A stretch of DNA of 64,000 bases from NCBI GenBank assembly GCA_964454335.1, contig CAYVVT010000002.1, positions 211,436 to 275,435 of the forward strand. Reading direction: 5' to 3'. How positions within the stretch are numbered: position 1 is the stretch's first letter; each line of letters begins with the position of its first letter. Shown one piece after another: positions 31,811 through 64,000 of this stretch. Under the pieces are notes generated by a model that saw only the letters and a list, made by a program, of their open reading frames with translations, had not been told where the DNA came from and searched no databases. Both the position numbers and the translations under genes were made by a program. This DNA is from an uncultured Lentisphaeria bacterium (GTDB lineage: Bacteria; Fidelibacterota; UBA8477; JABMPR01).

Positions 31811-31813
31811 ATC

Positions 31814-37943: not shown

Positions 37944-39122
37944 GTGGACGCAGTCATACCAGCTCTCATCCTGATGATCATCGTCGTACTCGGCGCTCTC
38001 TCGACTGAACTTATCGTACACAAACGCGCGCTGAGTAAAATACCCATTCGCATCCACGTGAATGGGACCCGGGGCAAATCCAGCGTAACACGTCTCATCG
38101 CCGCCGGTCTGCGTACCGGGGGAATGTCCGTTCTGGGTAAGACCACCGGATCCTCACCGCGTATCCTTGATCTCTACGGCAAGGACAGACACATCCACCG
38201 TCTGGCCAATGCCAGTATCGGTGAACAGACCAGATTCCTGCGCTACTTCTCCCATTACAGGCCTCAAGCGGTGGTCCTGGAATGCATGGCGGTGCAACCC
38301 CAGTACCAGTGGGTGAGTGAACAGCGAATGCTGCACTCCACACACTCTGTCATAACCAATTCCAGACTGGATCACATTGAGGAAATGGGCCCCACCTTGG
38401 AAGACATCAGCCAGAGTCTGGGCAATACAATCCCGTTCAAGGGAAAGATCTTCACCGCCGAACAGGAGAACCTGGACATTCTGGAGGACATCGCCGAGAA
38501 GCGCGGTACCAGCATCAAAGCTGTCACCTCCGGGGATGTGGATGCCGATGATATGCACGGTTTCAATCATATCGAGCATCCCGAGAACGTGGCCCTGGCA
38601 CTATCTGTATGCGAAGCACTTGGCATTGAACGCGACTCCGCCCTGGAGGGCATGAAACATGCCCAGCCCGATCCCGGAGCCCTGCGGGTATGGGAACTTG
38701 GATCAGAAGGCAAGGTTTTCACATTCATCAATGCGTTCGCCGCCAACGATCCCCAGTCCACGCGTCAGATATGGAAGATGATCAAGGAGAATCCGGGACT
38801 ACCCCATGAGCACATTTGCGCCTTCCTGAACACCCGTTTCGACCGCGTCTCCAGGACCCGTCACCTTCTGGACCTGATCCTCAAGGAGATCGATCCGGAC
38901 CGTTTGGTGGTCCGTGGTGAACGATTGGACCGGTTTGAAAGGGATTACTTCAGGAAGCTGGGCAGCCGTGTCACCACACATTCCGAGCAGGAAGCACCCC
39001 AGCGGGTGATCGCCGATCTCCTGGACCAGGCTGACAACACTCTGATCTTCGGCATGGGGAATATCGTGGGCAGTGGTTTTGTACTGTTGGATGAATTGAA
39101 GAAGTACAGGATCAACGCATGA
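37944..39122 (+). CDS. pgsB: poly-gamma-glutamate synthase PgsB/CapB (Mur-ligase-like amide ligase)
   Basis: GTG start; motifs VNGTRGKSSVTRL, ECMAV, PDPGA, NAFAANDPQST match B. subtilis PgsB closely. Confidence 0.8.
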   Translation: MDAVIPALILMIIVVLGALSTELIVHKRALSKIPIRIHVNGTRGKSSVTRLIAAGLRTGGMSVLGKTTGSSPRILDLYGKDRHIHRLANASIGEQTRFLRYFSHYRPQAVVLECMAVQPQYQWVSEQRMLHSTHSVITNSRLDHIEEMGPTLEDISQSLGNTIPFKGKIFTAEQENLDILEDIAEKRGTSIKAVTSGDVDADDMHGFNHIEHPENVALALSVCEALGIERDSALEGMKHAQPDPGALRVWELGSEGKVFTFINAFAANDPQSTRQIWKMIKENPGLPHEHICAFLNTRFDRVSRTRHLLDLILKEIDPDRLVVRGERLDRFERDYFRKLGSRVTTHSEQEAPQRVIADLLDQADNTLIFGMGNIVGSGFVLLDELKKYRINA

Positions 39123-39568
39123 TAGAAATTGCCATTGGTTTAGGCATCATTCTCAGTCTCTGGCTCACCGAATGGCTGGGGGTCACTGCCGGGGGGATCA
39201 TCGTTCCCGGTTACATCGCCATGCATCTGCACGAGCCCCTGCGGGTGGTTGCCACCTTCACCATCAGCATCTGCGTTTTCCTTATCGTCCGCGGTCTGTC
39301 CGAATTCATGCTGATCTACGGCAAGCGTCGACTGGTACTTTCCCTGCTGCTGGGATTCCTGTTCGGCTATATCTCCAGGAATTACCTGGCCATCGATTTT
39401 GATGTCCTGGGATGGGAGTTCTATACCATCGGATACATCATTCCCGGCCTCATCGCCAGCTGGATGGACCGTCAGGGAGTCCTGAGGACCATCAGCGTTG
39501 TACTGATCACCGCCACCATCGTACAGCTCGCAGTCATGCTGATCAGTGGGGGATCCATCCATGTTTAG
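39119..39568 (+). CDS. pgsC: poly-gamma-glutamate synthase membrane subunit PgsC/CapC
   Basis: 149-aa multi-TM protein with GGIIVPGYIA and YIIPGLIAS motifs as in PgsC; start overlaps the pgsB stop. Confidence 0.75.
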   Translation: MIEIAIGLGIILSLWLTEWLGVTAGGIIVPGYIAMHLHEPLRVVATFTISICVFLIVRGLSEFMLIYGKRRLVLSLLLGFLFGYISRNYLAIDFDVLGWEFYTIGYIIPGLIASWMDRQGVLRTISVVLITATIVQLAVMLISGGSIHV

Positions 39569-40679
39569 ACCGGCTATCCAGCGTACAGAGGTCCTGGTGG
39601 GGATGGCCATACTCTCCCTGGTGGTTTTCTATATCACCAGCTCCATACATGTCGAAAAACGTGAACCAGCCTACGAAATGAAGATCCAGGCCGCCCAGCG
39701 GATGGCCAGATCCATGCAGATCCTGAAGGATGTACGCATGGAGGCAGCAGTATTCATCGACGATGTGAACGATCCCAACGAAACTGCGCTAGTGGGAAGT
39801 CAATTCACGCACATCACCACGGATGAGGGTGATCTGGATGCCAAGATCTCCATCCTGGATCCAAATGTGGCGGCCATGGTGGTGGACTATCTCGATCGGG
39901 CTGGACTGCAGTCCGGCGATACCGTGGCCATCACCGTGACGGGGTCCATGCCTGGCGGCAACCTGGCGGTCTATTGCGCTGTAGAGGAGTTGGGACTATA
40001 CCCGGTGATCGTTTCTTCAGTGGGAGCCTCACAATGGGGTGCCAATGTGGATGATTTCACCTGGTTGGATATGGAGCGGATCCTGGTGGATTCAGGTTTG
40101 ATCTCCTTTCACAGTCAGGCAGCCAGCCTGGGCGGGGGTAGTGACATCGGTCGGCGTCTGAGTCCCAGGGGCCGTGATCTCATCCGGGAGGCCATCCAGC
40201 GGAATGAGGTTCCATTTCTCTCCAGTAGCGATCTGGAGAATGCCATCGAGAATCGCATCGAGCTCTTTACAGCTGACATGGAACTGAATCGTTATAAAGC
40301 CTTCATCAATGTTGGCGGAGGAGCAGCCGTTCTAGGGGATGCGCTGACCGCCCGACTGATCCAGCCGGGCCTCTCAACGCGTGTTGACCTACCCACGTTA
40401 CGTAGCGATGGTGTATTATCCCATTTCGGCCGGGAGGGCGTACCGGTGATCCATATTCTCAATATCCGCGAGATGTTCGATGATTTCGAATATCCTTACG
40501 CATCCACGCCAACCCCTGAACTGGGTACTGGATCCTTCTACGCAAGTGAAAGGTACAGTCCAGCGGCAACGGCGATAGCGCTAGCGTTATTGCTGGGTAT
40601 GCTTATTACGGTAGGACTTAACAGCAAACGGAAGATCAGGGATTACCTGGAAGAACATGAGCCGGAAAGTTATGCTTAA
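39561..40679 (+). CDS. uncharacterised membrane-anchored protein in the PgsA position; not CapA-like
   Basis: Overlaps the pgsC stop; N-terminal TM anchor and a C-terminal TM. The metallophosphatase motifs of canonical PgsA/CapA (GNFE, NNH, GHHPH) were not found. Confidence 0.5.
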   Translation: MFRPAIQRTEVLVGMAILSLVVFYITSSIHVEKREPAYEMKIQAAQRMARSMQILKDVRMEAAVFIDDVNDPNETALVGSQFTHITTDEGDLDAKISILDPNVAAMVVDYLDRAGLQSGDTVAITVTGSMPGGNLAVYCAVEELGLYPVIVSSVGASQWGANVDDFTWLDMERILVDSGLISFHSQAASLGGGSDIGRRLSPRGRDLIREAIQRNEVPFLSSSDLENAIENRIELFTADMELNRYKAFINVGGGAAVLGDALTARLIQPGLSTRVDLPTLRSDGVLSHFGREGVPVIHILNIREMFDDFEYPYASTPTPELGTGSFYASERYSPAATAIALALLLGMLITVGLNSKRKIRDYLEEHEPESYA

Positions 40680-41526
40680 AAGAACAGTCATTCTCGCAGC
40701 CCTTGTTTCACTTGTGTCAGCGGACCTGCTGAAGCCAGCCAACGGAAGCAAGCAGAAAGAGATCCTCACCATATCCGAGAACCGGAGGGTCTACTATGAC
40801 CTGGAGTCGGACCCGCTGACCTACCTGATCAACGGACCTGTCAGGTTGAAGATCTATTCACGTTCGGTGTACGCTCGCAAGACCAGCGAGTCCCAGCGCT
40901 ATAACTTCACAGTGCGTATTGATGAGGGCAATCCCATCAACATCCAGCACACACAGAGAATTACCACCAGCGTGAAATCCAGCATGCATCCCAATCACTA
41001 TTATTCACGTTCGGCCATCGACTATCTCAACATCCCGGCCGGGCCACATGAAGTGCATTTCTACCGGGACAAGAAGAGTAAACCAACCCTTATCAGAGTG
41101 CTGGAGATAGACCTGAAACCAGAAGGATCCAAAAAACGGCTGGAACCACTCGAGAAGGCAACCCCGGTGTCGGTTCAGGCAAACGGCAAGTCTCTAAGGT
41201 ACTTTGAATTGAGCAATGACAATCCGCTGTACGTCCAAGTAGATGGACCTACCAATTTTGAAGTAATCACGCGCCTCGCCTTCCAGACCTGGATGGGGCG
41301 TGAGCAGGATTACCGGCTGCAGGTCTGGGATAATGGCAAGTTGGCCGGAACCTTCTATTTCAGTGGTGAACGATCTGAGGTTTCGACGGTGGCCGGTCGC
41401 GATGATCTGGTGCCAGGCAAATGGCGCAGCTGCTATATCCCCATCACCAAGGGACAACATAAATTGAAAATCAAACTACTGGACAACGACCGTAGCGTAT
41501 ACGTTCGCATGAATCGTATTGACTGA
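40657..41526 (+). CDS. hypothetical secreted protein with internal tandem duplication
   Basis: Signal peptide; two ~110-aa halves share the pattern RVYYDLESDPLTYLINGP... / LRYFELSNDNPLYVQVDGP...; overlaps the upstream gene. Confidence 0.45.
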   Translation: MSRKVMLKRTVILAALVSLVSADLLKPANGSKQKEILTISENRRVYYDLESDPLTYLINGPVRLKIYSRSVYARKTSESQRYNFTVRIDEGNPINIQHTQRITTSVKSSMHPNHYYSRSAIDYLNIPAGPHEVHFYRDKKSKPTLIRVLEIDLKPEGSKKRLEPLEKATPVSVQANGKSLRYFELSNDNPLYVQVDGPTNFEVITRLAFQTWMGREQDYRLQVWDNGKLAGTFYFSGERSEVSTVAGRDDLVPGKWRSCYIPITKGQHKLKIKLLDNDRSVYVRMNRID

Positions 41527-41528
41527 CC

Positions 41529-42566
41529 TTGAGATCACTCACCCTTTTACTCGTCCTTTCGCTGAGCGTCACCGCTCAGTCCCTCCTGCACAGGCTTGCT
41601 GCACCCGTACATTTGGAGACGGGTCTGCAACCAGCCTGGCAGAGCAATCCCCTGAATCTTTCAGAACCTGAGATCGAAAAAGCCGCAGCGGGAACGGGAT
41701 ATCTCGGTGATGTTGATGCTGTCCAGAGCCGGGTGCTAAGCCTCTACACAGTGGTCTCCTATGATCCTCGTATCTTCAATGGCCGCAGGACCGCCTTCGA
41801 GCTCAGGGGCTTCTACCATTCTCATTTTGACATTCCCCAGCGTAACTATGCCAGTCTGAATGTCTCCATACGTCAATCCCTGGGCGGCTGGCGCTTCCTG
41901 GAAGCGGGATATGGTCTGTTGCCTTCGCTGTATCTGAGGCATTATCGTTTCGACAATCATCCCAGCATCCTGCCCGGGCGCTACGCCTGCAGATTTGGCA
42001 CGGAACGCGGTTGGCTCGAATTTCAGCACCGGATCACTCCGGCAACCTCGCTGCAGTACCGCCTGACGCGACGGATCGAGCGCTATCAGGCCCCCTTCTC
42101 ACATTATGACATGCAAATGCTGGAAGCGGCTGTGGGTCTCAGATCGAAACCGCTTCGAGCTGTCACCGCCAGATTCGAGGTCCAGTACGGGCAGGCCAGC
42201 AATGACAACCATCTTGACGACCTGGATCGCAGCTACAGTTATCTGAATATCAGACCCGCTTTGAATTTCCCCATTCCAGGGGACCTGCTCCGATCCATAT
42301 CCCTCGATGGTCGTTTTGATCAACGCGCCTATCAGAGTGATGAGATCACAGACCCACTGCATGCGGGCCGTTACCAGTATGAGTACCGTCTGGATCTGCG
42401 TTTGTTTCCCCAGAGCAAGGACCGTATGAATTGGTATCCCTTCCTCGGTTATCGGCAGCGTATCGTGGAATCAGATTCAGATTTCGTGCAGGACCTGAAA
42501 TCATTCAAACGCTGGTGGTTCGGGATACGGATCGGTCTGAACTCAACAATTGATATCTATTTGTAA
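41529..42566 (+). CDS. hypothetical outer-membrane beta-barrel-like protein
   Basis: TTG start 2 nt after the upstream stop; signal peptide MRSLTLLLVLSLSVTAQS; Tyr/Arg-rich alternating strands. Confidence 0.4.
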   Translation: MRSLTLLLVLSLSVTAQSLLHRLAAPVHLETGLQPAWQSNPLNLSEPEIEKAAAGTGYLGDVDAVQSRVLSLYTVVSYDPRIFNGRRTAFELRGFYHSHFDIPQRNYASLNVSIRQSLGGWRFLEAGYGLLPSLYLRHYRFDNHPSILPGRYACRFGTERGWLEFQHRITPATSLQYRLTRRIERYQAPFSHYDMQMLEAAVGLRSKPLRAVTARFEVQYGQASNDNHLDDLDRSYSYLNIRPALNFPIPGDLLRSISLDGRFDQRAYQSDEITDPLHAGRYQYEYRLDLRLFPQSKDRMNWYPFLGYRQRIVESDSDFVQDLKSFKRWWFGIRIGLNSTIDIYL

Positions 42567-43645
42567 TGCTACAGGAACTACGGAATACCATGAAATTAAA
42601 AGCTATGAAGAAATGTGTCGCTTATGGTCTGGGCTTCTTCACCATCATACTGCTGGCGGGCTGTTTACGACCTGATCCCATCGAAGCGGATAATCTTGTG
42701 GAGTTGGACCTCCTCTACGAGATCAACACAGTGGGATGGGCCAGGGATATAGCCATACATGAGGACCTGATGTTCGTGGCCGCCTCCCAAGCCGGCGCAC
42801 AGATCTGGGATCTGGGTGGTGAAACTCCCGAACTGGTATATCAGGAGGATTTCGGCAGCGACGATCTGGAGTTGATCCGCTACGATGCACGCAATCGTCT
42901 TCTCCTGGCCTCAGACCGGACCATCGTCCACTATCGGGCAATGGACAGCACGAACATCGGTCTGGATTCGGCGTACTATGACAATCCCAGTGCCTTCCTG
43001 GATCCCCGGCAGCTCTCTGATGGCAACACCCAGGATTTCACTTTCACCTCCCAGGACAGCCAACTTGTCATTTATCTGACAGATAGGGACTTTTCGGACG
43101 GCCTGAAACGCATATTCCTTACCTTCTCCGAGGAAAGCACCTTTGGTGGTCAGTACTGGTCGCCTGAAGGTCATAAACTGGTGAACGGTCACATGCGTGG
43201 ACTGGACATGCAGGATGATCTGGTCGCTGTTACTATCGAAGAGTTGGGTATCGCCCTGTTCCAGGTCAGCCCGTCCACCATCGACACCCTGGCCTTCGCC
43301 GATACGCCCGGGGAAGCCCTGGAAACGATTTTCTCAGGTGATCGTCTGCTGGTAGCCAACAACTGGGGCGGATTGCAGATCTTTGACTGGGATGGCAGCA
43401 GCCTGGAGTCTTTGAGCATACTGGATTTTGATGAGAATGTGGAACATATATCCATCTGGGGTGACGCTGTCATCCTGAGCTGTGGCCTGGATGAATGCTA
43501 CATCGTCGATCTCACCGATCCTGCAGATCCGCAGGTGGACCAGTTTATCGAGAGCGGTTATTGTTATCGCAGTACCGTGGACGGCGACAGGGTTTATATG
43601 GCAACCCGGGATGGTGTGAAAGTATACAGTATAAGCCTCAATTAG
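42566..43645 (+). CDS. lipoprotein with LVIVD-like beta-propeller repeats
   Basis: Lipobox FTIILLAGC; repeated DxxLVxx...GLxIxD units (e.g. DRLLVANNWGGLQIFD); start overlaps the upstream stop (TAATG). Confidence 0.5.
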   Translation: MLQELRNTMKLKAMKKCVAYGLGFFTIILLAGCLRPDPIEADNLVELDLLYEINTVGWARDIAIHEDLMFVAASQAGAQIWDLGGETPELVYQEDFGSDDLELIRYDARNRLLLASDRTIVHYRAMDSTNIGLDSAYYDNPSAFLDPRQLSDGNTQDFTFTSQDSQLVIYLTDRDFSDGLKRIFLTFSEESTFGGQYWSPEGHKLVNGHMRGLDMQDDLVAVTIEELGIALFQVSPSTIDTLAFADTPGEALETIFSGDRLLVANNWGGLQIFDWDGSSLESLSILDFDENVEHISIWGDAVILSCGLDECYIVDLTDPADPQVDQFIESGYCYRSTVDGDRVYMATRDGVKVYSISLN

Positions 43646-43653
43646 CAGGACCT

Positions 43654-52783: not shown

Positions 52784-55700
52784 ATGAAATATGTCCTCGT
52801 ACTTATAATGATGATCTCAGCGCTGGTGGCTGAAGAGCACTTCGCCTGGGCTTTGAACGGGATACCGATTCGCCAGGGTGTGCATATTGAGTGGCAGCGC
52901 ACCGCAGATTCCGGCAACGAGGGCGAATTGATCTTCGCCTGGTCCGATACCCGCAATGGTGATCGTGATGTCTATATGCAGAAGATCGATTTGGCAGGGA
53001 ACAAGCTCTGGGGTGAAACGGGTGTTCAGGCCAGCGTAACCTGGGGTCGTCAGGAAGATCCGGTCATCGTGTCCGACGGCATGGGTGGAGCCTTTCTTGC
53101 CTGGATCGATTACCGTGCCGATGAATATGGTGATGTCTACGGTCAGTATATCAACAGTGATGGATTGCTGCAATGGGATCCAGCCGGAGTTCCGCTGGCA
53201 GTCAATGACGGTGCCCAGCAGACTGCCAATATGGCCAGGGGCGGGGAAGGTTATGCCTTCGTCATCTGGGACGATTGGTCGCAGTCTGAACAGGGTGACA
53301 TCTTTGGTCAGGTCCTGAGTGTGAGTGGTCCCATTGAAGATCCCGAGCACAACGGATTCCCGGTTGCGGATGCTGCGGGCAGCCAGTCTTCCCACACCAT
53401 TGAGAACAGTGGATCGGATGCCGTGGTGGCCTGGGTGGATACGCGAGATCCGTCAAATCCAGATATCTATGCCCAGCGTCTGGATAACGCTTTCAACAAA
53501 CATTGGACTGACCAGGGTACCCTGGTCTGCGGTGAGGCCAGCGAACAAAGTGCGCCCAAGGTAGCCCCGGCTGACGGGGACCGGGTTGTCTTGAGTTGGC
53601 TGGATCCACGGAATAATGACAAGGGTGATGTTTATTCACAGATCCTGAACGTTGACGGTGAAGCTGCCTGGACGGCGAACGGGATTGCGGTAACAAATTT
53701 GAGTGCAGAACAGAATCGACCCAGGGTCAAGTCCAATGGAGTCGATCTGCTTTATTACATCTGGGAGGATTTTCGGAACAACAACCAGGATCCGGATATC
53801 TATACCCAGGCTCTGAATTTTGATGGTACCCCACACTGGACCGCTGACGGTATCCCGGTGAGCACAGCAGATCTGAAACAATTGCAGCCGAGGATCACAG
53901 TGGAGAGCAGCGGTGGATTCTTCGTCGTCTGGTTGGATGAACGCCAGGGTGGTTTCCCACAGTCTGATGTCTACATCCAGAAGGTGAACGATGACGCCAG
54001 CATGGATTTCATCGCCGATGGATTAGCCCTCACTGATGCTAAACGTTATCAGACAGGTGGTCTTGTACGACCTGACGGTTCGGGTGGTGCGATGGTGGTG
54101 TGGGGGAACGCCTCCACCGGAAGCATCGGCATCATGGCCCAACATGTAAGCAGTGACGGCAGTCAGAGCTGGGACGCAGACGGAACGGAATACTTCTTTG
54201 GCATCGATGGAGATGCTTCCCGCGGCCGTGCCTTACCCTGGGGCGACCATGAGGTAATGGTCTTCTGGGAGGATAACAGGCTTGCTGCAACTGGTGCCGT
54301 TGCCACTGCCCAGGTGATCAGCCGCAATGCAGGGATCAGCCACATTCTTGACGGTAAATCCCTTTCCACGAACGATGAGCAGGCGGTACCGGTGATCACT
54401 CCGGACCACGCCAACGGTGCCTACCTGGGATTCATGAACAAAACTACCGGGATCGAGATCCTGTATGCCCACCGTATCGATGAGAACCTGGACGCGGTCT
54501 GGCCGAGTGACGGCATCCGCATCTATGAAGAGAGTTTTGGGGCACAGGAAGCACCTTTCGTGGTGGCGGACGGTGACGGCAATCTGTTCTATTTCTGGTC
54601 TGAGTTGAGATTCGGGCCATACACGATCTACATACAGAAGTTCGATCCAGAGGGGAACGCCCACTGGCAGGCTGACGGCGTGGAGATCGGTGGTGACATG
54701 ATCTATCGTGATAAATACGTCACTGATGCAGTACTGCTGGCAGATGGTGGTATTTTCTTCGTTTGGGAAGCCATTTCGTGGGATGATGTCGATGTACATG
54801 TATCCAAGATCGACAACGATGGCGTTCTGCAATGGTCTCAGCCAATCACCGAGGCCACCGGGATCCAGGAAAATCCGGAGCTGGCCTTCGATGTTACCCT
54901 GGATCTCGCCTATATCGGCTGGCATGATGCCCGACAGGCAGCTACGAATGGTGTCGATCTCTATTATCGCTCGGTAACCAGCGACGGCACATTGGGGGAA
55001 GAACTCACCGTGGTTGAAAGCAGCGGCGACCAGACCGAACTGGCCCTGAGCCTGGCCGATGATGACAGTGGCGTCCTCTACGCCGCGTGGGAAGATTATC
55101 GCGACGGCCTTCAACATGATATCTTTGTCCGTGAACTGAACAGCTCCAGCAGCGAGATCCAGATCACGACTGAATCATCGGAGGACCTGGCACCGGCTCT
55201 GCGAGTTGTAAGCGCTTCCCACTTCTTTGTTGTCTGGGAAGATTTCCGCAACGGGATCCATTCAGATCTGTATTTCTATGATTCCGAGATCGGGCACGAA
55301 TACAACGTTCCCGGTGGTGTGCCCCTGTGTGTGGATGTTCTGAACCAGAGTGATCCACAGATTGCTGCCTATGCGGACAATTCACCTGATTCATCAGCAT
55401 ACATAATCGTCTGGGAGGACATGCGTTCATCAGGGAAGACAGAATTGACTAATATCTATGCCCAGGGCTATATCGAAGGTGCTGTGGCCATCGACGATGA
55501 CGAGGTCACAGTCCAGGATTTCCAGGTCATGCCCGCTTTCCCCAATCCCTTTAACGGTACTACAAGCATTCCGGTGGAACTCAACCGTCCCGGCATGGTG
55601 AAGTTGACGATCCATGACCTCCAGGGCCGGGAGATCTTCAGCCAGTCGGAATATCTCAGCGGTAACCAGACGCTGCAATGGATCGGGCACACTGATGACC

Positions 55701-55786
55701 TGCAGGAATTGGGCAGCGGTGTCTACATCGCCAGGATAGAATTTGCCGATCAGTCACTCAGTCAGAAACTGATCTATCTGCGCTAA
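52784..55786 (+). CDS. secreted protein with about 16 tandem ~50-aa beta-propeller-like repeats and T9SS C-terminal sorting domain
   Basis: Repeats of the type DVYxQxIxxDGxxxW (DVYMQKIDLAGNKLW, DIYAQRLDNAFNKHW, DVYSQILNVDGEAAW ...); C-terminus FPNPFNGTTSIPVELN...GVYIARIEF is a T9SS CTD. Confidence 0.6.
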   Translation: MKYVLVLIMMISALVAEEHFAWALNGIPIRQGVHIEWQRTADSGNEGELIFAWSDTRNGDRDVYMQKIDLAGNKLWGETGVQASVTWGRQEDPVIVSDGMGGAFLAWIDYRADEYGDVYGQYINSDGLLQWDPAGVPLAVNDGAQQTANMARGGEGYAFVIWDDWSQSEQGDIFGQVLSVSGPIEDPEHNGFPVADAAGSQSSHTIENSGSDAVVAWVDTRDPSNPDIYAQRLDNAFNKHWTDQGTLVCGEASEQSAPKVAPADGDRVVLSWLDPRNNDKGDVYSQILNVDGEAAWTANGIAVTNLSAEQNRPRVKSNGVDLLYYIWEDFRNNNQDPDIYTQALNFDGTPHWTADGIPVSTADLKQLQPRITVESSGGFFVVWLDERQGGFPQSDVYIQKVNDDASMDFIADGLALTDAKRYQTGGLVRPDGSGGAMVVWGNASTGSIGIMAQHVSSDGSQSWDADGTEYFFGIDGDASRGRALPWGDHEVMVFWEDNRLAATGAVATAQVISRNAGISHILDGKSLSTNDEQAVPVITPDHANGAYLGFMNKTTGIEILYAHRIDENLDAVWPSDGIRIYEESFGAQEAPFVVADGDGNLFYFWSELRFGPYTIYIQKFDPEGNAHWQADGVEIGGDMIYRDKYVTDAVLLADGGIFFVWEAISWDDVDVHVSKIDNDGVLQWSQPITEATGIQENPELAFDVTLDLAYIGWHDARQAATNGVDLYYRSVTSDGTLGEELTVVESSGDQTELALSLADDDSGVLYAAWEDYRDGLQHDIFVRELNSSSSEIQITTESSEDLAPALRVVSASHFFVVWEDFRNGIHSDLYFYDSEIGHEYNVPGGVPLCVDVLNQSDPQIAAYADNSPDSSAYIIVWEDMRSSGKTELTNIYAQGYIEGAVAIDDDEVTVQDFQVMPAFPNPFNGTTSIPVELNRPGMVKLTIHDLQGREIFSQSEYLSGNQTLQWIGHTDDLQELGSGVYIARIEFADQSLSQKLIYLR

Positions 55787-55807: not shown

Positions 55808-58198
55808 TTGCGGAATCGCGTCTTTAGCAACGCTGTCCTGGCGGCAGTCATCTTTCTGACAGGTATTTCCCTGGAAGCGGAGCAGTTCGCAGCCTGCGGA
55901 CATCGGGATCACAACAGCATTTCCAATGCCTTCCGGGAATCGGTTCTGGATTCAAACTTCCACACCTACGACGAGATCGTCAGCTACCTCGATTCTGTAG
56001 ATCAGGTCCCTGAGCTTGAGTCGATCCTGGAAGTCTACGAGATCGGTTATTCCACGAACGAGGATCTGCCCATCAAGGCCATCAAGATATCGGATAATCC
56101 CACCTTGGAGGAAGATGAAGCCGCCCTGCTGTTCCTGGGACAATGCCATGCCGAGGAGATCCTGGGCGTTGAGATCAGCATGGGGCTCATCGACTCCTTG
56201 ATCAGCGGATTCAGCACCGGGAATCCACATATCATGGCCCTGATCCAGAACCTGGAGATCTGGGTGGTCCCCACACATAATCCAGAAGGGCTCCAGGTCG
56301 TGCATGATGGTTGGGACGTGACCTATAGGAAAAACAAGACGGACTGCAATGAGAACGGTGCGTTTGATTTTGTGGAAGGTATCGGCTGGGATATTGACGG
56401 GATCGATCTCAATCGGCAGTACGACTTCAACTGGATCTATGGGGACGCATACCTGGAAGGTGACTACGATTATTTCCGCGGCTTCGAACCCTTCAGCGAA
56501 TCCGAGGTACAGGCTGTAGCTGCCCTGGCGCGGGAGCAGCATTTCGTATTCTCCATTGCCTATCATTCCGCCCGCTCCGGTACGCCTGAGATCGTTTACT
56601 ACTCCTGGGAATGGGAAGATGTGAAGACACCGCCCGATTATCCCATCATCGATGAGCTGGCCCAGGAGCTGGCCGCCCGGATCATCAACGAATCCGGTGA
56701 CGGCAATTATGCTTCCCATCCGGGTACAACCCGGCGGGGGAACGCCCATGACTGGTTCTACACACAGACAGGCTGCATCCAGTTCCTGGTGGAATGCGGA
56801 ACCAACAATCTGCAGCCTGAAGGGCCCATCATCCTTGATACCGTTCAGCGCAACCTCGTAGGCTGCTTCTTTCTCCTGGATCGTGCGCTGGGATATCCTC
56901 CAGAGAGTCGCTCTCAGATCCGGGGCATCGTTCAGGACGCGTCGGATAACTTTCCGCTTGAGGGAGCTCAGGTGAGTGTATACCACCACACTCTGGATGA
57001 AGGTATCGTCCCCTTTGAGGGGCCTATGCTGGTTCCCCGTCGAACGGACGAATTTGGAAGATATCGCCGGATTCTGCAACCGGGTACCTATACGCTCGTC
57101 GCCTCAGCGCCGGGATTTGAATCCGACACGGTTGCTGGGGTATCTACAAGTGACAGCTATCCCAGCGATGTCGATTTCACCCTGTTACCCATGCCTGAAA
57201 AAGATTTCACCCTGGTGCTGCCACCAAGGGACGGATTGAGCCAATACACTGTGATCATGGCCGACAACACCCAGCGAGATACTCTAAATCTCGCGCCAGG
57301 GAATTTCCATATTAGCTGGCAGGGTCATTACGTTGACCTCACCGTATCCGCTGAAGGCTTTTTCCCCGAATTGCATCAAGTGGTCCTGGACAGTATCCCG
57401 GATGGGTACGTCTATGAACTTGGAATTCATCTGCCGGAGCATTATGTCGTTCTTCAGCATGGTTTTGAGGATCTGGTGGGCTGGGATGTCAATGGTCCCA
57501 ACTGGTTCCTCTGGGATGGAAAGATATTCACTCAGGCTGCCATGACCTATCTGCCTGGAGATGATGTTTCCCTGACCTCGCCTATTTTCTCGCTGAGCAC
57601 CTACAAACGTGTTGCCGTTGAGATCCACCACCAGTATGAACTGGAGTGGGATATCGACAGCGTCTCAGTGGATATCCTGGATCATAATACCGGACAGGTT
57701 GTGTTACACAAGGCCTGGATGGGGCAGGATTACGAACCGCACAGCGACCTTGTCTTCGAGGTTGGTGACCTGCCTGGATTTGGTCGGCTGAGACTGAGTA
57801 TGGCAGCGGATTCGACAGTTGAGTTCCGTGGCTGGGTCATTGACAGTATAGCGGTCATGATCACCAATGAAGAAGTGGTTGCGGTAGACGACAGGTTGAA
57901 GGAACACCAGCGTTCACAGCCAATGGAGGCCAGACTCAGTCTGCAACCCAATCCCGTGCGCAACCAGACATCGGTATACTTCGAACTGCCAGGCGCGCTG
58001 GAAATTGAGATCGAGATATTCGATGTTCTGGGGCGACGGATCAAGCACTCCGGCCTGCAGGGGGTAGCAGGGAATAATCAATGGTCCTGGCAAGGCGTGG
58101 ACCAGTATGGCAGCCGGGTACCCGCAGGGATCTACTTTCTCAGGATGACGGGACCGGAACTTCAGGTCACACAGAAATTCATGTTGTTGGCACCTTGA
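55808..58198 (+). CDS. M14-family zinc carboxypeptidase with regulatory-like beta-sandwich domain and T9SS C-terminal sorting domain
   Basis: TTG start; zinc/active-site-like motifs GQCHAEEILG, THNPEG, DLNRQY, IAYHSAR, FLVECG; C-terminus LSLQPNPVRNQTSVYFEL...GIYFLRM is a T9SS CTD. Confidence 0.7.
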   Translation: MRNRVFSNAVLAAVIFLTGISLEAEQFAACGHRDHNSISNAFRESVLDSNFHTYDEIVSYLDSVDQVPELESILEVYEIGYSTNEDLPIKAIKISDNPTLEEDEAALLFLGQCHAEEILGVEISMGLIDSLISGFSTGNPHIMALIQNLEIWVVPTHNPEGLQVVHDGWDVTYRKNKTDCNENGAFDFVEGIGWDIDGIDLNRQYDFNWIYGDAYLEGDYDYFRGFEPFSESEVQAVAALAREQHFVFSIAYHSARSGTPEIVYYSWEWEDVKTPPDYPIIDELAQELAARIINESGDGNYASHPGTTRRGNAHDWFYTQTGCIQFLVECGTNNLQPEGPIILDTVQRNLVGCFFLLDRALGYPPESRSQIRGIVQDASDNFPLEGAQVSVYHHTLDEGIVPFEGPMLVPRRTDEFGRYRRILQPGTYTLVASAPGFESDTVAGVSTSDSYPSDVDFTLLPMPEKDFTLVLPPRDGLSQYTVIMADNTQRDTLNLAPGNFHISWQGHYVDLTVSAEGFFPELHQVVLDSIPDGYVYELGIHLPEHYVVLQHGFEDLVGWDVNGPNWFLWDGKIFTQAAMTYLPGDDVSLTSPIFSLSTYKRVAVEIHHQYELEWDIDSVSVDILDHNTGQVVLHKAWMGQDYEPHSDLVFEVGDLPGFGRLRLSMAADSTVEFRGWVIDSIAVMITNEEVVAVDDRLKEHQRSQPMEARLSLQPNPVRNQTSVYFELPGALEIEIEIFDVLGRRIKHSGLQGVAGNNQWSWQGVDQYGSRVPAGIYFLRMTGPELQVTQKFMLLAP

Positions 58199-58235
58199 GC
58201 AGAGCTGCGCGTATAATCCTCCGTAAACAGATCTA

Positions 58236-61200
58236 ATGAGGCTCCTTTTGAATAGAATTTACAGAACCCTCGTTCCAGTGATCCTCGCAAGTCAGGTCTT
58301 TGCCGCACAGGGCCCCCTTGGTTTTGAGAAGCTTATGAATGCCTATCCGGATGTCAGGGAGAATTATGCCTGGCAGACCTATCAGCGTGGTGACTTCCTG
58401 GTGATTGGCGCTGATGCACTGATGGACAATCCCTTCATGGGTCTCTACAGGGAATTCAAGGAGCGTCAGGGTTTCCGAGTGACGATGACGGGTCTCAGTG
58501 AGGCAGGGAACACCTCTGCCGCTATCAAGGATTACATTGCCGATTTCTACAGCAGTCATGCACTGGAATATGTACTGCTGGTAGGGGATGTCACCGGGGC
58601 CTTTGCATTGCCCAGCTATAGCTTCGGACCGGAAAACGATGTCACCGATCTGCCGTATGTGCTGCTGGAAGGGTCCGGCGACGATTATTTTCCGGAAGCC
58701 TTCATCGGTCGCTGGCCGGTAGATACGCAATCAGACCTGGCGGTGATCGTCAACAAGACCATTCAATATGCCTCAAATCCCTACATGGGTTCTGATTGGA
58801 TGGACAAGGCCCTGGTCGTTGCCGGGAATTACGCCGATACGGGGACGATCCTCACACCGGTATGGACATCATACTGGTTAAGGGATGAACTTGATGATTA
58901 CGGATACACACAGGTCGATACCGTATTCTTCCCGCCGGTGACCCAGCCAACTGACGTTCTCAACTCCTGGAACTCGGGGGTGGGGATCGTGAATTACCGA
59001 GGATGGGGTGATGCCCATGGCTGGCATTATCCCCATTTCCATGTATCAGATTTTGATGAAGGCAGCCTGTCCAATGGTTTCCAGCTACCTATCGTGTTCA
59101 GCTTCGTCTGTGGAACAGGCAAGTTTGACAGTTCCATCGATCCATCCTTCTGTGAAGCCATGCTAACCCTGGGGACCTTTACCGCTCCTGCAGGCGCTGT
59201 GGCGGTGGTAGCGCCTTCTGATCTGCATACCCGCACTAAATTCAACAATGCCCTGAACACAACCCTGTGGGATGCCCTGCTGGAGGGACGCGCCAACGAA
59301 CTGGGGCCAGCACTACTGGCCTGTAAGTTCGGATTCCTCAACGAGTTCACCGATCAGACCGGGCCCGGGGAGATGGCAGAATTCTACTATCATACCTACA
59401 ATATCATAGGCGATCCCAGCCTGCCCATCTGGTTGGGAACACCGGATATTATCGATATCAGCGCCGAGGACCTGGGACCGGTGTTCTGGGACTCAGGCTT
59501 GATAACCATGACCAGCTCTGAACTACCCGAAGGCGTTTTCGCACTGCGTCATGGTGAGGAACTGGTTGGCGCAGGACGCTGGACCGATGGGAACATCCGA
59601 ATCTATCGATTTGACGGCCATGCCTTCTACGATCCCGAGAAGGAATCCGAAGCCCTGGAGATCACCCTCAACGTTCCGGGTCATGTCCCCCTCACGCTGG
59701 AGGTCATGCCGGAGACTGGCGCTGAACAATGTTTTGCAGGATTTGCTGAGTCACTGTACCCGGGGATCGACTCCTGGTCTCTCCAGGTGGATAACCATGC
59801 TGCAGCGAGCGTGGATGCAAGCGTGGGTATCAGCATTCCGGGAACGGATTACAATCATGATTTTGGAACAGTCACCATTCCGGCCCAGACCACACTGACC
59901 CTGTCACCCCTCTCGGCGCCCGTTATCCCCCTGGGAACTCGCGAGCAGGTGATTGAGATCAGCATCGATGGTGTTACCCGCAGCGCTGCCATTCCTCTAG
60001 CTATGGTCCATGCTGATATCGAGCTTGATTTTGGAGAGATGCTGCGTCCCATCCCCGGTGAATCCTTTGAAGTAGACCTGAGCGGCGTTCTGGTGGGCAT
60101 GCCGGTTTCAGCACTGGATCTGGATGTTAGTCTTTCCAGTCCTGCAGAATTCGCAAGTCTTGATGACATCAGCGGAAGCGCCACCCTTTCCACCGCCGGT
60201 GAACTGGTCTTTGAGGATGCCCGTTTTTCCGGGAGCATCTCTGATATTGCCCCGGGCAGCCGTTTACCGCTGCATTTTGATTTTACCCTGGCCGGGCAGT
60301 CGGAATCCTTTCATCAAGCGGTATTCTCAGTGTTGGTGGGCAGCGTGAGCAGTACCGATCCCACACCACCCTGCGAGGCAGGATATTGGGCCTACGACAA
60401 CACCGATGTGGACTTTGCCCAAGCACCTGAGTATAACTGGCTTGATCTATCCGAGGAAGGTGGAGCAACCCATGTCCTGCTGGGTGATGATGACCACACG
60501 CTGGTGGACCTGCCCTTCACATTCAGATATTTTGGTGTTGACTACAACAATCTGACGATCAATTCCAACGGCTGGGCAGCCTTCGGTCCGGATTACATCA
60601 ACTATTTCCGGAACTGGTCGATCCCCATGCCTCTGGGTGCTGATGCCATGATGGCACCATTCTGGGACGACCTTGACAATGACAGTCTGGTAGCCGGGCA
60701 GGAACAACCGGTACCCATCGATATCTACTACTACCAACAAATCGGCGATCCAGGGGCTTTTATCGTACAATGGGATGAGATCTACAATGGCTTTGGTGAC
60801 CGCAGCTATACCGAAACATTTCAGCTGCTGCTGTACGATCCCGCCTCGATGGTGGCGGAGGATGGAAACGGCATCATCGAATTCCAGTACAGCGAAGTAC
60901 ACGATGTGGATCAGATCAACAATTACACCACAGTTGGCATCGAGAGCCCCGATCAGAATGATGGGCTCCAGTATGTCTACAATCGGGTCTATGCACCCGG
61001 GGCTACAGAACTCGGTGCAGGCCTGGCTATACGATTTACCACGGATCCACCGGATAACTACTGGGCTTCGATCAGTGAAGCCCTGCCATTACCGCAGGTA
61101 TTCAAGCTTGGAATGCCCTACCCGAACCCATTCAATCCTGAAGTGTCGATTCCGTTAGAGATCAAGGGTACCGGCCATGTATCCGTTGCCATCTACAATC

Positions 61201-61358
61201 TCCGGGGACAGTTGGTCCGGGAGATCGATACTGCAGGCCTGGCAGCGGGTACGCACAGGCTACAATTCAATGCCGGTGATCTGGCTGCAGGGCTGTATCT
61301 GGTCCGCGCGGGTCGTAGTGATGAATTTCAGGTACAGAAGATCACTCTGCTGAAGTAG
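58236..61358 (+). CDS. gingipain-like C25-family cysteine peptidase homolog, 1040 aa, T9SS C-terminal sorting domain
   Basis: C25 hallmarks YVLLVGDVTGAF, FPEAFIGRWP, VNYRGWGDAHGW, FVCGTGKFD, GDPSLPIW; C-terminus PYPNPFNPEVSIPLEI...GLYLVRA is a T9SS CTD. Confidence 0.75.
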   Translation: MRLLLNRIYRTLVPVILASQVFAAQGPLGFEKLMNAYPDVRENYAWQTYQRGDFLVIGADALMDNPFMGLYREFKERQGFRVTMTGLSEAGNTSAAIKDYIADFYSSHALEYVLLVGDVTGAFALPSYSFGPENDVTDLPYVLLEGSGDDYFPEAFIGRWPVDTQSDLAVIVNKTIQYASNPYMGSDWMDKALVVAGNYADTGTILTPVWTSYWLRDELDDYGYTQVDTVFFPPVTQPTDVLNSWNSGVGIVNYRGWGDAHGWHYPHFHVSDFDEGSLSNGFQLPIVFSFVCGTGKFDSSIDPSFCEAMLTLGTFTAPAGAVAVVAPSDLHTRTKFNNALNTTLWDALLEGRANELGPALLACKFGFLNEFTDQTGPGEMAEFYYHTYNIIGDPSLPIWLGTPDIIDISAEDLGPVFWDSGLITMTSSELPEGVFALRHGEELVGAGRWTDGNIRIYRFDGHAFYDPEKESEALEITLNVPGHVPLTLEVMPETGAEQCFAGFAESLYPGIDSWSLQVDNHAAASVDASVGISIPGTDYNHDFGTVTIPAQTTLTLSPLSAPVIPLGTREQVIEISIDGVTRSAAIPLAMVHADIELDFGEMLRPIPGESFEVDLSGVLVGMPVSALDLDVSLSSPAEFASLDDISGSATLSTAGELVFEDARFSGSISDIAPGSRLPLHFDFTLAGQSESFHQAVFSVLVGSVSSTDPTPPCEAGYWAYDNTDVDFAQAPEYNWLDLSEEGGATHVLLGDDDHTLVDLPFTFRYFGVDYNNLTINSNGWAAFGPDYINYFRNWSIPMPLGADAMMAPFWDDLDNDSLVAGQEQPVPIDIYYYQQIGDPGAFIVQWDEIYNGFGDRSYTETFQLLLYDPASMVAEDGNGIIEFQYSEVHDVDQINNYTTVGIESPDQNDGLQYVYNRVYAPGATELGAGLAIRFTTDPPDNYWASISEALPLPQVFKLGMPYPNPFNPEVSIPLEIKGTGHVSVAIYNLRGQLVREIDTAGLAAGTHRLQFNAGDLAAGLYLVRAGRSDEFQVQKITLLK

Positions 61359-61604
61359 TTCGGAGCACATTCCCTCATCCCCGGACAGACAATCATCGAT
61401 CCAGCGTTCAGGTATCAAAAACTGGCTCCAGACGGGTTCAACACAAGCCGTTGAAAAGGTATTCAGACAGCTGCTCAAGAGTGGTGTAAGTCAGTCAGAA
61501 CATGGGTTTACCCATGGGGCTCCATTAAAATGTTAGATTGCCATCGTACCAGTGGAGTTCTTCGTCTTCTATATTCTCCGAACGTGAAAAGGATAGAAAG
61601 GTTC

Positions 61605-64000
61605 ATGATGTATATGAGAGTGGTTAGTGTGCTCACCTTTTTCTCTCTGGCCGGCGGCTTGATCGCTGCCGAAGCTCCCCTGGCTGCCGAGGGTCGACTT
61701 GTCATTCAGGATTTTGATGAATACCAGTCCACCTTCATGGTCAATATGCCTGATTGGGAACTTGGTTCAGTCACACTGCAAAGTGGGGAATATCAACGCA
61801 TTCTAAGCGATCTCAGTGGTGAGATCAGACTCACCGGGGCCCCGCACTTACCAACCACCAGTACTCTCGTAGCGGTACCTGAAGAAGGTGCACTTCACGT
61901 TGAATACAGCTATGCTGGTGAGACGATCCTGAGTGACGTGGACCTGGTCCCATTCCAGGCCGTACAGCTTGAGGCGGAGGGAGTCGCCCGTCAGCAGCTT
62001 CCCGACCGGGAGATCTATCAGACCGACGCCTGGTATCCGGCGGAACCGGTCTTCCTGCACGATCGCGCAAAACTCAGAGACATAGCACTGGTGACCGTTG
62101 AGGTTACACCCTTCCAGTACAATCCCGTGCGACGGGAACTCAGGGTTCTGGAAGGTATGCAGGTAGCCGTCAGCCATGACGAGGCACTGCATGCACCCAA
62201 TAAGCCCGTTTCACGATTCTTTGAACCCATTTATCAGTCACTGTTCCCCAACTATCCCATGGTCATGCCAGATCATTATCAGACACCTTCTATCCTTTAC
62301 ATCACACCCAATAATGCGACGGTTGATCTGATCATGGAGACACTAGTGGATTGGAGGCATGAAAAAGGCTTCGAGGTCCATGTAGCCAATACCGCATTGA
62401 CGGGCAGTTCAAACTCTTCCATCAAATCCTATATCCAGACCGCCTATGACACCTGGCCGAATCCACCTGAATTCGTATGTCTGGTTGGGGATGTTGGCGG
62501 CGGCCTGGGTATTCCAACCTTCTACGAGGGTTGGTCCTGGTACAACGGTGAAGGTGACCATCCCTTTGTCCACCTCGACGGTGGAGATTATATCAGTGAC
62601 GCCTTCGTGGGACGATTGACATTCTCATCCACCTCCCAGCTGACGAATATCATCGCCAAGATCGTCAACTATGAGAAACAGCCATATGTAGATGACACAA
62701 ACTGGTTTACTCGTGCCTTGCTGGTGGGTGATCCCTCGGCTTCCGGCCTCTCCACCATCATGACCAATCGCTTCATCGATGAGTTGTCCCAGTACCATGG
62801 TTACAGCAACAACTTCCTGGTATTCAGCGGATCATTCGAAGGTCAGATGGCATCCGGCCTTAACGCCGGCGTCTCCTTCTTCAATTATCGCGGCTATCTG
62901 GGTATGAGCGGCTGGGACAACAGTAATACGAACTCCCTCTCCAATGGTCCTAAACTGCCATTCGTGACCATTCTGACCTGCGGTACAGGCGGTTTTGCCG
63001 GCAGTTCGCGTGCGGAGCAGTTCCTGAAGGTCGGAACAGCAGCAGTACCCAAGGGTGGTATAGGTGCCGTAGGAACGGCCACCTCTGGAACGCATACGCT
63101 ATACAACAATTGCGTCGCAGGTGGGATCTATCAGGGCATTTTCAACGAGAAGATCTATTACGCAGGTGCAGCGCTTGAGCGTGGCCGCCTGAATCTCAAC
63201 ATGAGCTATCCCAGCAATAACAACAATTTCGTCGAGATCTTCTCACACTGGAACAACCTCATGGGTGATCCGGTGACAGAATTCTGGACCGGCATACCCG
63301 GTAACCTGACCGTCACAGTTCCGGCTGAACTACCCGTAGCCAGCCGTTGGCTCAGCGTGTTGGTTGAAAATGATCTGGGACTACCAGTCAAAGACTCCTG
63401 GGTCACAGCCCTACAGGAAGGCGACTCGGTCTTCGTTTCCGCCTATACGGATGAGAACGGTGTTGCCCAGCTCAGTCTAGAAGGTTTGGTAGAGGGCGAC
63501 CTCACCGTTACGGTGACCAAGCATAATTTCATACCGAGCCAGAGCACCGTCGGCGTTGCGGCTGGCAATGTCGCAGTTCTCATCGACGATGTAACACTTG
63601 TCGAGTCATCGGGTAATGGTGACGGGATCGTCAACGCTGCTGAAAGTGCCGACCTGACCTATTCAGTATTGAACAGCGCAGATACCACTGTGAATGATGT
63701 TACCATCCTGGTGACCCACGAGGATGGCACCGTGCTCTCGGATTTCTACCTCTCATCACTGGATGCGTCCGAGCTCCACACATCTTCACCAATCAATATC
63801 GACATACCTGCTGACTACCCCGGGGTAGCTGACCTGGATGTAAAGTTCGAGATCGGGGTTGACGGTTCAGGCTGGAACGATCACCGCCGATTTGAGATCA
63901 CCGCCCCATACCTCAGCGTCATAGCCTTGAATGAAGGTGGAACTGCCATTCCCTCCTTTGATCCAGGTGAGATCACAGACCTGGTCGTCAGCCTCAAGAA
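61605..64000 (+). CDS. gingipain-like C25-family cysteine peptidase homolog, 5' part only (runs off window end)
   Basis: ATG 61605 with signal MMYMRVVSVLTFFSLAGGLIAAEA; in-frame C25 motifs FVCLVGDVGGGLGIP (from 62460) and FNYRGYLGMSGW (from 62880). No + strand ORF with a stop is listed in the track after 61358, consistent with an open frame to base 64000. Confidence 0.65.
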   Translation, partial: MMYMRVVSVLTFFSLAGGLIAAEAPLAAEGRLVIQDFDEYQSTFMVNMPDWELGSVTLQSGEYQRILSDLSGEIRLTGAPHLPTTSTLVAVPEEGALHVEYSYAGETILSDVDLVPFQAVQLEAEGVARQQLPDREIYQTDAWYPAEPVFLHDRAKLRDIALVTVEVTPFQYNPVRRELRVLEGMQVAVSHDEALHAPNKPVSRFFEPIYQSLFPNYPMVMPDHYQTPSILYITPNNATVDLIMETLVDWRHEKGFEVHVANTALTGSSNSSIKSYIQTAYDTWPNPPEFVCLVGDVGGGLGIPTFYEGWSWYNGEGDHPFVHLDGGDYISDAFVGRLTFSSTSQLTNIIAKIVNYEKQPYVDDTNWFTRALLVGDPSASGLSTIMTNRFIDELSQYHGYSNNFLVFSGSFEGQMASGLNAGVSFFNYRGYLGMSGWDNSNTNSLSNGPKLPFVTILTCGTGGFAGSSRAEQFLKVGTAAVPKGGIGAVGTATSGTHTLYNNCVAGGIYQGIFNEKIYYAGAALERGRLNLNMSYPSNNNNFVEIFSHWNNLMGDPVTEFWTGIPGNLTVTVPAELPVASRWLSVLVENDLGLPVKDSWVTALQEGDSVFVSAYTDENGVAQLSLEGLVEGDLTVTVTKHNFIPSQSTVGVAAGNVAVLIDDVTLVESSGNGDGIVNAAESADLTYSVLNSADTTVNDVTILVTHEDGTVLSDFYLSSLDASELHTSSPINIDIPADYPGVADLDVKFEIGVDGSGWNDHRRFEITAPYLSVIALNEGGTAIPSFDPGEITDLVVSLK

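Follow-up and report, generated by a model that had tools for sequence, protein, structure and literature searches.

Our analysis of a 64,000-nucleotide stretch of DNA from an uncultured bacterium placed by GTDB in the Fidelibacterota (assembly GCA_964454335.1, contig CAYVVT010000002.1, forward-strand positions 211,436 to 275,435; hereafter the window) points to a train of genes headed by the polyglutamate synthesis gene pgsB as one conserved module for the synthesis, export and surface processing of poly-gamma-glutamate (PGA) in a diderm cell. We favour this reading with moderate confidence, on the basis of sequence comparisons and predicted structures. A core of eight genes (pgsB, pgsC, pgsS, the three genes that we call E, F and G, a C25 peptidase-like gene and an M14 carboxypeptidase gene) is conserved in two deeply diverged lineages. 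Taken together, the products of E, F and G resemble an export module of the outer envelope, a point absent from an earlier note on this DNA that had been made from its letters.

Results

In the open reading frame (ORF) map the train comprises twelve genes, all on the + strand, that run from position 37944 to the window end at 64000 in the order pgsB, pgsC, pgsS, E, F, G, C25dock-1, C25dock-2, J, M14, C25-CTD and a fourth C25 gene. Between pgsB and the first C25 gene the junctions of the longest ORFs measure -4, -23, -23, 2, -1 and 8 nt, both of the -23-nt overlaps shrinking to about -8 nt once the starts assigned by gene callers to an identical metagenome contig are used, and overlapping or very short junctions recur over this part of the train in relatives. 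After the first C25 gene the gaps are 87, 70, 21, 37 and 246 nt. The earlier note had described a tight, co-directional train with essentially these gaps, and had assigned dockerin-like ends to two C25 proteins and type IX secretion system (T9SS) C-terminal domains (CTDs) to the repeat protein, the M14 carboxypeptidase and the third C25 protein; both descriptions hold. The same proteins are present on metagenome contigs. A consensus scan detected no terminator-like sites in the intergenic parts of the train and fewer promoter-like sites than in shuffled sequence, and the 157-nt gap upstream of pgsB contains one promoter-like match (37861-37889). Such scans are uninformative for an organism of the Fibrobacterota-Chlorobiota-Bacteroidota (FCB) group and were not used to define operons, so that the train is neither split nor joined by them.

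The genes at the head of the train are those of PGA synthesis, as the earlier note had supposed, and all three of their products pass NCBIfam cutoffs. The first, pgsB (37944..39122, GTG start), encodes the ligase subunit of PGA synthase, with the P-loop GTRGKS and a match to the equivalog model TIGR04012 at 403 bits (cutoff 222.7), and it heads the conserved cassette in every relative. It overlaps by 4 nt with pgsC (39119..39568), which encodes the membrane subunit of the synthase (TIGR04011, 122.7 bits, cutoff 96.45; PF14102, 5.8e-33). The third, pgsS (39546..40679, with a start placed at 39561 by gene callers), encodes a 'poly-gamma-glutamate system protein' (TIGR04332, 307 bits, cutoff 100) that has a hydrophobic segment at each end. 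No PgsA/CapA-type domain was found among the window proteins scanned, and the TIGR04332 protein appears to occupy the place of PgsA/CapA, in what would be an alternative three-gene form of the Pgs/Cap system. Our literature searches returned nothing relevant for the name of the TIGR04332 protein and nothing linking Marinimicrobia to polyglutamate or dockerins.

The relatives with which the train was compared are metagenome-assembled genomes (MAGs) or metagenome contigs throughout. Homologues of G in species-representative genomes all come from MAGs, 15 of the 16 labelled Candidatus (Neo)Marinimicrobiota or Marinimicrobia. We mapped 16 Marinimicrobia loci by tblastn in GTDB species representatives and found pgsB-pgsC-pgsS-E-F-G together in every one; among the 15 with sequence after G, a dockerin-bearing C25 gene follows G directly in 14. 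Next come J (13 of 13) and M14 (10 of 10) in the loci that extend so far, and a C25 gene with a CTD stands after M14 in the loci having gene calls (a 1036-aa orthologue of C25-CTD in L005, L006 and L008). Protein identity to the window is 35-55% in these loci, and what flanks the cluster varies with the lineage. The E family reaches into a second clade (clade 2), some members of which are labelled Candidatus Eisenbacteria by NCBI. Here every one of the 11 distinct loci in which sequence extends past G has the order pgsB-pgsC-pgsS-E-F-G-C25, followed by M14 in the six that go on far enough (6/6); J is absent, and identity to the window proteins is 24-42%. The conserved core thus consists of the eight genes named above, to which Marinimicrobia appear to have added J and a second C25 gene (with a CTD), and in which they appear to have exchanged the tail of the C25 protein. 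The reading of the earlier note would have been weakened by a gene order not conserved in relatives; that order is kept in both clades at the frequencies just given, which argues that the link between the PGA genes and the C25 and M14 genes is not accidental.

A more distant PGA locus, L030 (7185-17853), has pgsB-pgsC-pgsS-E, with an E that is 21% identical, and no F, G or C25. Its neighbours encode a DUF5916 protein (opposite strand), a FlgD_ig-tailed protein and a fusion of Peptidase_C10 (streptopain family) to a beta-helix; the C10 domain may represent a different cysteine peptidase recruited to the same type of locus.

None of E, F and G matched a Pfam or NCBIfam family. Their own families are small (93, 44 and 13 proteins, respectively) and were seen solely in this cassette. 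E (40657..41526, +) encodes a secreted 289-aa protein that is modelled as two tandem jelly-roll beta-sandwich domains resembling carbohydrate-binding modules (CBMs). Its profile gave one marginal match to PDB sequences, and a fold search with the model returned CBMs, with BcsB among the structural matches and no cohesins. We propose that this tandem CBM-like module is a periplasmic escort that binds the polymer. On one contig, L001 (8114-8895), E was called as just 187 aa followed by a small antisense ORF, probably through a frameshift or an assembly error; that contig carries an identical G, and the full 289-aa E is encoded in the window and on further contigs (P0208, P0302).

F (41529..42566, +) encodes a 345-aa protein whose profile had zero matches to PDB sequences. 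The AlphaFold2 (AF2) model, built on a 27-sequence alignment (pLDDT 87.6, pTM 0.81), has about 14 long antiparallel strands after a signal peptide, and the top Foldseek matches are all outer-membrane barrels: CymA (6e-9), OmpG, PgaA (4y25, the exporter of poly-N-acetylglucosamine, PNAG), FadL and OprD. F is therefore predicted to be an outer-membrane beta-barrel, and we propose it as the exit channel of the polymer; like that of E, its structural assignment rests on a predicted model. G (42566..43645, +) encodes a 359-aa lipoprotein with the lipobox LLAGC, the Cys33 of which is invariant in 12 homologues. Matches to PF08309 (LVIVD) in its homologues, with a sub-threshold LVIVD match in the window protein itself, make G a probable LVIVD beta-propeller lipoprotein; each of its 13 homologues lies inside this cassette. 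In clade 2 the barrel protein is about 495 aa long (L028 10890-12377; L029 10986-12482), some 150 aa longer than F, and over the first 115 aa it is similar to E's second jelly-roll domain (E 5e-12, 29% identity). An E-type module seems to have become naturally fused to the barrel here, which argues that E and F act together.

The catalytic domains of the C25 proteins in the train are homologous to that of the gingipain RgpB (E about 2e-28). C25dock-1 (43654..48132, +; PF01364, 8.8e-62; NIDO, 1.6e-11; Dockerin_1, 17.4 bits) has a signal peptide, a C25-like domain, two NIDO-like domains and a C-terminal type-I dockerin (about 47953-48129); in a HMMER alignment to RgpB its Cys441 is kept at the position of Cys244 and Leu408 stands at that of His211. 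Its tandem paralogue C25dock-2 (48220..52713, +; PF01364, 1.4e-61; NIDO; Dockerin_1, 20.4 bits) has the same architecture, with the dockerin at about 52534-52689, and both proteins are about 1,495 aa long. As the best tblastn match to the single C25 protein that follows G in relatives (45-52% identity over the full length), C25dock-2 appears to be the closer counterpart of the single-copy orthologue of most relatives; the duplication was seen in this genome and in L007. The spacers before C25dock-2 (48133-48219) and before J (52714-52783) share the ending GGTTTAGATA(A/C)ATG, in keeping with a tandem duplication that included the spacer downstream of the gene. The second of these spacers also contains the short inverted repeat GATCGG..CCGATC.

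C25-CTD (58236..61358, +; PF01364, 5.4e-58; PF18962, 34 bits; TIGR04183, 27 bits) combines a C25-like domain, with Trp in place of the His and the Cys kept, with a NIDO domain and a T9SS type-A CTD. An exact look-up of this protein found no record of it. The fourth C25 gene (61605..64000, +; Propeptide_C25 PF08126, 1.7e-19; PF01364, 7.4e-49) is cut by the window end. Its product has Tyr at the His211 position (G-Y-L for the G-H-G of RgpB) and retains the Cys. This gene, behind its 246-nt gap, may form a separate transcription unit.

The loss of the gingipain His extends well beyond the window, as judged from alignments. The equivalent of Cys244 is kept in 20 of 20 local sequences and in all 150 of the best cluster representatives, and the position of His211 is L, Y, F or W in all 20 local paralogues and orthologues, likewise in clade 2, and in 149 of these 150 representatives, with His in the remaining one. 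The equivalents of Glu152 and of Asp163 of the S1 pocket are lost in the C25 domains of the 20 local sequences and likewise in clade 2. The residues around the His211 position form the motif N-Y-R-G-[WFYL]-G, and the Arg before that position is invariant in 20/20 local sequences. Our search with the C25 catalytic domain, made against 1.84 billion cluster representatives, of which the best 150 were used for the active-site tally, returned 10,931 relatives at E <= 1e-3 and 1,747 at <= 1e-30. By these comparisons the four C25 proteins of the window appear to be part of a C25 subfamily that is very large and has a non-canonical active site, and the loss of the His in 149 of the best 150 representatives means that it is not a matter of local decay. 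Within this subfamily, the PGA-linked dockerin C25 is a narrow orthogroup, with just four cluster representatives at more than 50% identity. The retention of the Cys motif and of a propeptide suggests activity of some kind. The 'protease array' of the earlier note needs correcting to this extent: the C25 and M14 homologies stand and the M14 active site is intact, while all four C25 proteins lack the gingipain His and keep the Cys, so that proteolysis by them is unproven.

The sole nearly invariant His, His295 of C25dock-1 in a TDH.Y motif, is missing in C25-CTD and in 46 of the 150 representatives, so it was rejected as a universal replacement for the canonical His. A PorU-type sortase identity was discarded, since the window C25 proteins score far under the cutoffs of the PorU models (NF033707, 17-51 bits, cutoff 420; NF052324, <= 38 bits, cutoff 450); an attempted alignment to PorU gave no sequence-level PDB match. 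With the gingipains RgpB and Kgp and with PorU of Porphyromonas gingivalis, the window proteins share homology of the catalytic domain, the Cys244 equivalent, a propeptide, a signal peptide and, on some of them, a CTD. They differ in lacking His211, Glu152 and Asp163, in having extra NIDO-like domains and in the dockerin that replaces the CTD on two of them.

The type-I dockerin call on these two tails is sound. The single-sequence scores quoted above fall below the Pfam cutoff of 22.9 bits, and a profile built from 12 orthologous tails matches solved type-I dockerins (2ccl_B, E 8.4e-8; 16 sequences with E < 1e-3). Both Ca-loop motifs D-x-N-x-D-x-x-x-D-x-x-D are present, and the dockerin is conserved in 17 of the 17 dockerin-bearing C25 proteins examined (15 from relatives and the window's two). 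As in cellulosomes, secreted enzymes end here in a type-I dockerin that has two Ca-binding loops; unlike in cellulosomes, no cohesin or scaffoldin was found in the window, the cargo is peptidase-like rather than glycoside hydrolase, and an FCB-group diderm is the host.

The surface proteins encoded downstream in the train have a signal peptide, hydrophobic N-termini being visible, and either a T9SS CTD or a dockerin. TIGR04183 scores above its cutoff in J, M14 and C25-CTD and not in the two dockerin C25 proteins. No component of the T9SS machinery was identified among the scanned proteins of the 64-kb window. The orthologous C25 protein of clade 2 ends in a FlgD_ig/T9SS-type CTD and not in a dockerin, and we therefore take the dockerin and the T9SS CTD to be apparently interchangeable tails of one orthologous gene. 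An S8 subtilase of 808 aa encoded elsewhere in the window (19813-22239, -) also has a C-terminal type-I dockerin, at 25.7 bits above the Pfam cutoff; together with the C25 dockerins this makes at least three dockerin-tailed peptidase-like proteins in 64 kb, which argues that the dockerin is a general tag in this genome. Pfam scans found no cohesin in essentially all window proteins, and none was found at E <= 1 in the non-catalytic segments of the C25 proteins, M14 and J. The partner of the dockerin may be encoded elsewhere in the genome.

The M14 gene (55808..58198, +; PF00246, 2.8e-35; TIGR04183, 35 bits) encodes a zinc carboxypeptidase composed of a catalytic domain, a CarboxypepD_reg domain, an unassigned 250-aa segment and a T9SS CTD. 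Its set of zinc-binding and catalytic residues is complete (HxxE, NR, the third His and the Glu270 equivalent), and 11 sequences from Marinimicrobia and 5 from clade 2 keep the motifs CHAEE, AYHS and FLVE. The residue that precedes (D/N)W is His in Marinimicrobia and Arg in clade 2. We take this position to be residue 255, which sets P1' specificity. Arg at residue 255 confers a preference for acidic residues in carboxypeptidase O (CPO) and in the cytosolic carboxypeptidases. A basic residue at the specificity position would thus fit a substrate with a C-terminal glutamate. Cytosolic carboxypeptidases, CPO and gamma-D-glutamyl-meso-diaminopimelate peptidase are M14 enzymes that act on glutamate chains or gamma-glutamyl bonds, and the window protein shares with them the M14 fold, the intact residues and the basic specificity position. 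It differs from them in that its best sequence matches are carboxypeptidase T and N/D-type enzymes and in that Arg145 is not kept in clade 2.

J (52784..55786, +) encodes a secreted protein of 1000 aa made of 55-aa repeats, of which nine anchors (W..D.R....DIY.Q) were found, and ending in a T9SS type-A CTD (TIGR04183, 36 bits, cutoff 23). Its repeat body has no PDB or Pfam match, with sub-threshold repeat matches only. J is confined to Marinimicrobia, where it lies between the dockerin C25 gene and M14.

Upstream of pgsB, two T9SS cargo genes lie between a TldD/PmbA metallopeptidase pair and the train: one for a beta-helix protein (33285-36473, -) and one for a lamin-tail-domain (LTD) protein with a weak T9SS CTD (36623-37786, +), directly upstream of pgsB. 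Beta-helix folds are common among polymer depolymerases. Genes for beta-helix proteins also precede pgsB, on the same strand, in several clade-2 loci (L028 5413-6945, L034 1-957, L035 4084-6627), and their products match the beta-helix part of the C10 protein of L030, which could be coincidence. An LTD protein gene is found before pgsB in L007 (901-1710) and Endonuclease_1/LTD/CTD proteins are encoded before it in L009 (336-4359); upstream of pgsB in L012 and L013 there are CTD-like matches only. Since the upstream neighbours differ in L004 and L005, the LTD protein lies outside the conserved core. The TldD/PmbA pair of the window (30278-33136, +), 4.8 kb upstream of pgsB, is 74% and 59% identical to the pair that stands directly after G in loci L004 (11199-14044) and L025 (11166-14011).

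Farther from the train, at 10919-12258 (+), a 151-aa ORF that consists of little beyond a T9SS CTD (FlgD_ig, 1.9e-12; Por_Secre_tail, 5e-8) overlaps, in another frame, the start of an ORF with an FGE-sulfatase domain (11266-12258), an odd arrangement that is possibly a frameshifted or mis-ordered gene. At 13676-19412 and 22495-28519 (-), hypE, hypD, hypF and hypB-like hydrogenase maturation genes adjoin a polysulfide-reductase-like operon (molybdopterin subunit, 4Fe-4S subunit and NrfD, with a rhodanese, a sulfur-transport protein and a MerR regulator). Sulfur-based energy metabolism has been reported for Marinimicrobia, and these hydrogenase and polysulfide genes fit it. The rest of the window also holds beta-oxidation genes and several other T9SS cargo genes, likewise in agreement with an assignment to Marinimicrobia.

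Discussion

PGA is understood almost solely from the Gram-positive genera Bacillus and Staphylococcus, and we know of no route that moves this polyanion over the periplasm and the outer membrane of a diderm cell. In the mechanism that we propose, PgsB and PgsC, with the TIGR04332 protein replacing PgsA, would polymerise glutamate at the inner membrane. In the periplasm E would bind this anionic chain, in a role comparable to that of the BcsB jelly-roll domains in guiding cellulose, and F together with the lipoprotein G would pass the chain across the outer membrane, where the C25-like protein and the M14 carboxypeptidase would work on the polymer at the cell surface. The C25 protein would be retained there by its dockerin in Marinimicrobia and by its T9SS CTD in clade 2. 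The most likely division of labour would have the C25 protein perform endo-cleavage or a transpeptidation-type anchoring of the polymer, and the M14 enzyme the exo-trimming of C-terminal glutamate, in a role that would be the diderm counterpart of that played by Bacillus subtilis PgdS and Bacillus anthracis CapD. The part of the earlier note that connected the C25 and M14 proteins to the PGA genes through processing or anchoring of the polymer is, in our view, the best reading, and it is backed by synteny in two clades.

Genes for enzymes that cut or anchor the polymer are encoded with the synthase in Bacillus too: pgdS comes after pgsBCAE in B. subtilis and capD lies within capBCADE of B. anthracis. 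The window cluster resembles both in that the PgsB and PgsC orthologues come first and one or more co-oriented candidate peptidase genes lie directly downstream. It differs from them in having the TIGR04332 protein and no PgsA/CapA, in its diderm host and in the insertion of E-F-G; moreover, its enzymes are C25-like and M14 proteins with T9SS or dockerin tails, and not NlpC/P60 (PgdS) or gamma-glutamyltranspeptidase (CapD). In its layout the cluster is reminiscent of the Bcs (cellulose, BcsA/B/C), PgaABCD (PNAG) and Alg8/44/K/E (alginate) systems, with their inner-membrane synthase, periplasmic jelly-roll module, outer-membrane barrel, lipoprotein and modifying enzymes. This is a likeness of fold and layout, with no sequence homology. 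The polymer of the window cluster would be a polyamide, F has about 14 strands and no tetratricopeptide repeat (TPR) domain, and neither a TPR nor a PilZ domain, the latter as a c-di-GMP receptor, was found in the train proteins scanned.

A bolder version of this proposal is possible, though we hold it only tentatively and with some doubt. Here, the cluster would encode an undescribed system, spanning the envelope, that secretes and attaches a polyamide capsule. E, F and G would constitute its new outer-envelope exporter of PGA, and the C25 protein would be a PorU-like transpeptidase that ligates the cut polymer to a surface acceptor, or a T9SS cargo protein such as J to the polymer, with M14 trimming the free ends.

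Several observations weigh against the single-module reading. The canonical His and the S1 Asp of the gingipains are gone, leaving catalysis by the C25 proteins uncertain, and most members of the family of 10,931 representatives are surely unrelated to PGA. For a dockerin C25 protein that lacks a CTD, no way of crossing the outer membrane is known in this group. The lineage of L004 and L025 carries the pgs genes with E, F and G and has no adjacent C25 gene, which means that export is not strictly dependent on one. Part of the synteny inside each clade reflects inheritance and not independent maintenance, and the gaps of 87, 70 and 246 nt make co-transcription past the first C25 gene an assumption. 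Lastly, the mapping of position 255 in M14 is made by motif alignment and from the literature on the family.

Among the alternatives, it is improbable, to our mind, that C25, M14 and J form a general array for the extracellular degradation of proteins as nutrients and were merely inherited beside a capsule operon. C25 is listed among the common extracellular peptidases of the Marinimicrobia MAGs analysed in one study, which also mentions gingipain (PMC8359207). The great size of the C25 subfamily, the dockerin-tailed S8 subtilase encoded far from the PGA genes, the lineage that keeps pgs-EFG in the absence of C25 and the 70-246 nt gaps, which leave room for separate promoters, would all agree with such an array. 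However, in both deep clades the genes have stayed adjacent and in order at identities of 24-55%, clade 2 providing no exception, while the flanks are entirely different; the C25 linked to PGA forms a narrow orthogroup of its own; and the canonical protease dyad is incomplete.

We consider it quite unlikely that the dockerin C25 proteins dock on a cohesin-like module of a T9SS-anchored protein such as J to build a cellulosome-like surface scaffold. The dockerin is genuine by profile and constant among the dockerin-bearing C25 proteins, a second type of enzyme in the window (S8) also carries one, and J, itself a T9SS cargo, always follows the dockerin C25 gene in Marinimicrobia and is absent where the C25 protein has a CTD, the co-variation expected if J were the docking partner. 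Against this, the search for cohesin-like modules that the earlier note had proposed, run here on the window proteins, detected none, and relaxing the threshold to E <= 1 for the non-catalytic stretches of J, M14 and the C25 proteins did not change this. E is CBM-like and not cohesin-like, J consists of short propeller-type repeats and not of 140-aa sandwiches, and the dockerin proteins have no CTD and thus no known way across the outer membrane in this group. The scaffold of dockerin cargo on T9SS cargo is consequently the part of the earlier interpretation that we abandon, its PGA link being retained and its protease array amended as described above.

Least probable of all is that the C25-like proteins are pseudo-peptidases which, with J, form a coat interwoven with or holding the anionic polymer and leave M14 as the only catalyst: the hydrophobic residue at the His211 position in 20/20 local sequences and 149/150 best representatives, the lost Glu152 and Asp163 equivalents and the size of the multidomain C25dock proteins (about 1500 aa, with two NIDO-like domains each) would suit such a coat, but the Cys is invariant in 170 of 170 sequences within a strongly conserved motif, Propeptide_C25 domains typical of zymogens are retained, and an alternative catalytic base is possible.

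Returning to the module for PGA synthesis, export and processing, our results suggest that the cluster represents an undescribed way for diderm bacteria to export and process PGA, with E, F and G as three concrete, family-less candidate parts for the export step. Its conservation in two deep uncultured lineages indicates that a specific gingipain-like protein and an M14 carboxypeptidase accompany the polymer genes. With gamma-PGA as a candidate substrate, one branch of the C25 subfamily that lacks the His becomes experimentally approachable, and some caution is called for in metagenome surveys of Marinimicrobia, where C25 genes of this kind should not be tallied as generic protein-degrading enzymes. 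The abundant Marinimicrobia of the ocean may coat themselves with polyglutamate or release it, which, if true, would be relevant to particle attachment, metal binding and dissolved organic nitrogen.

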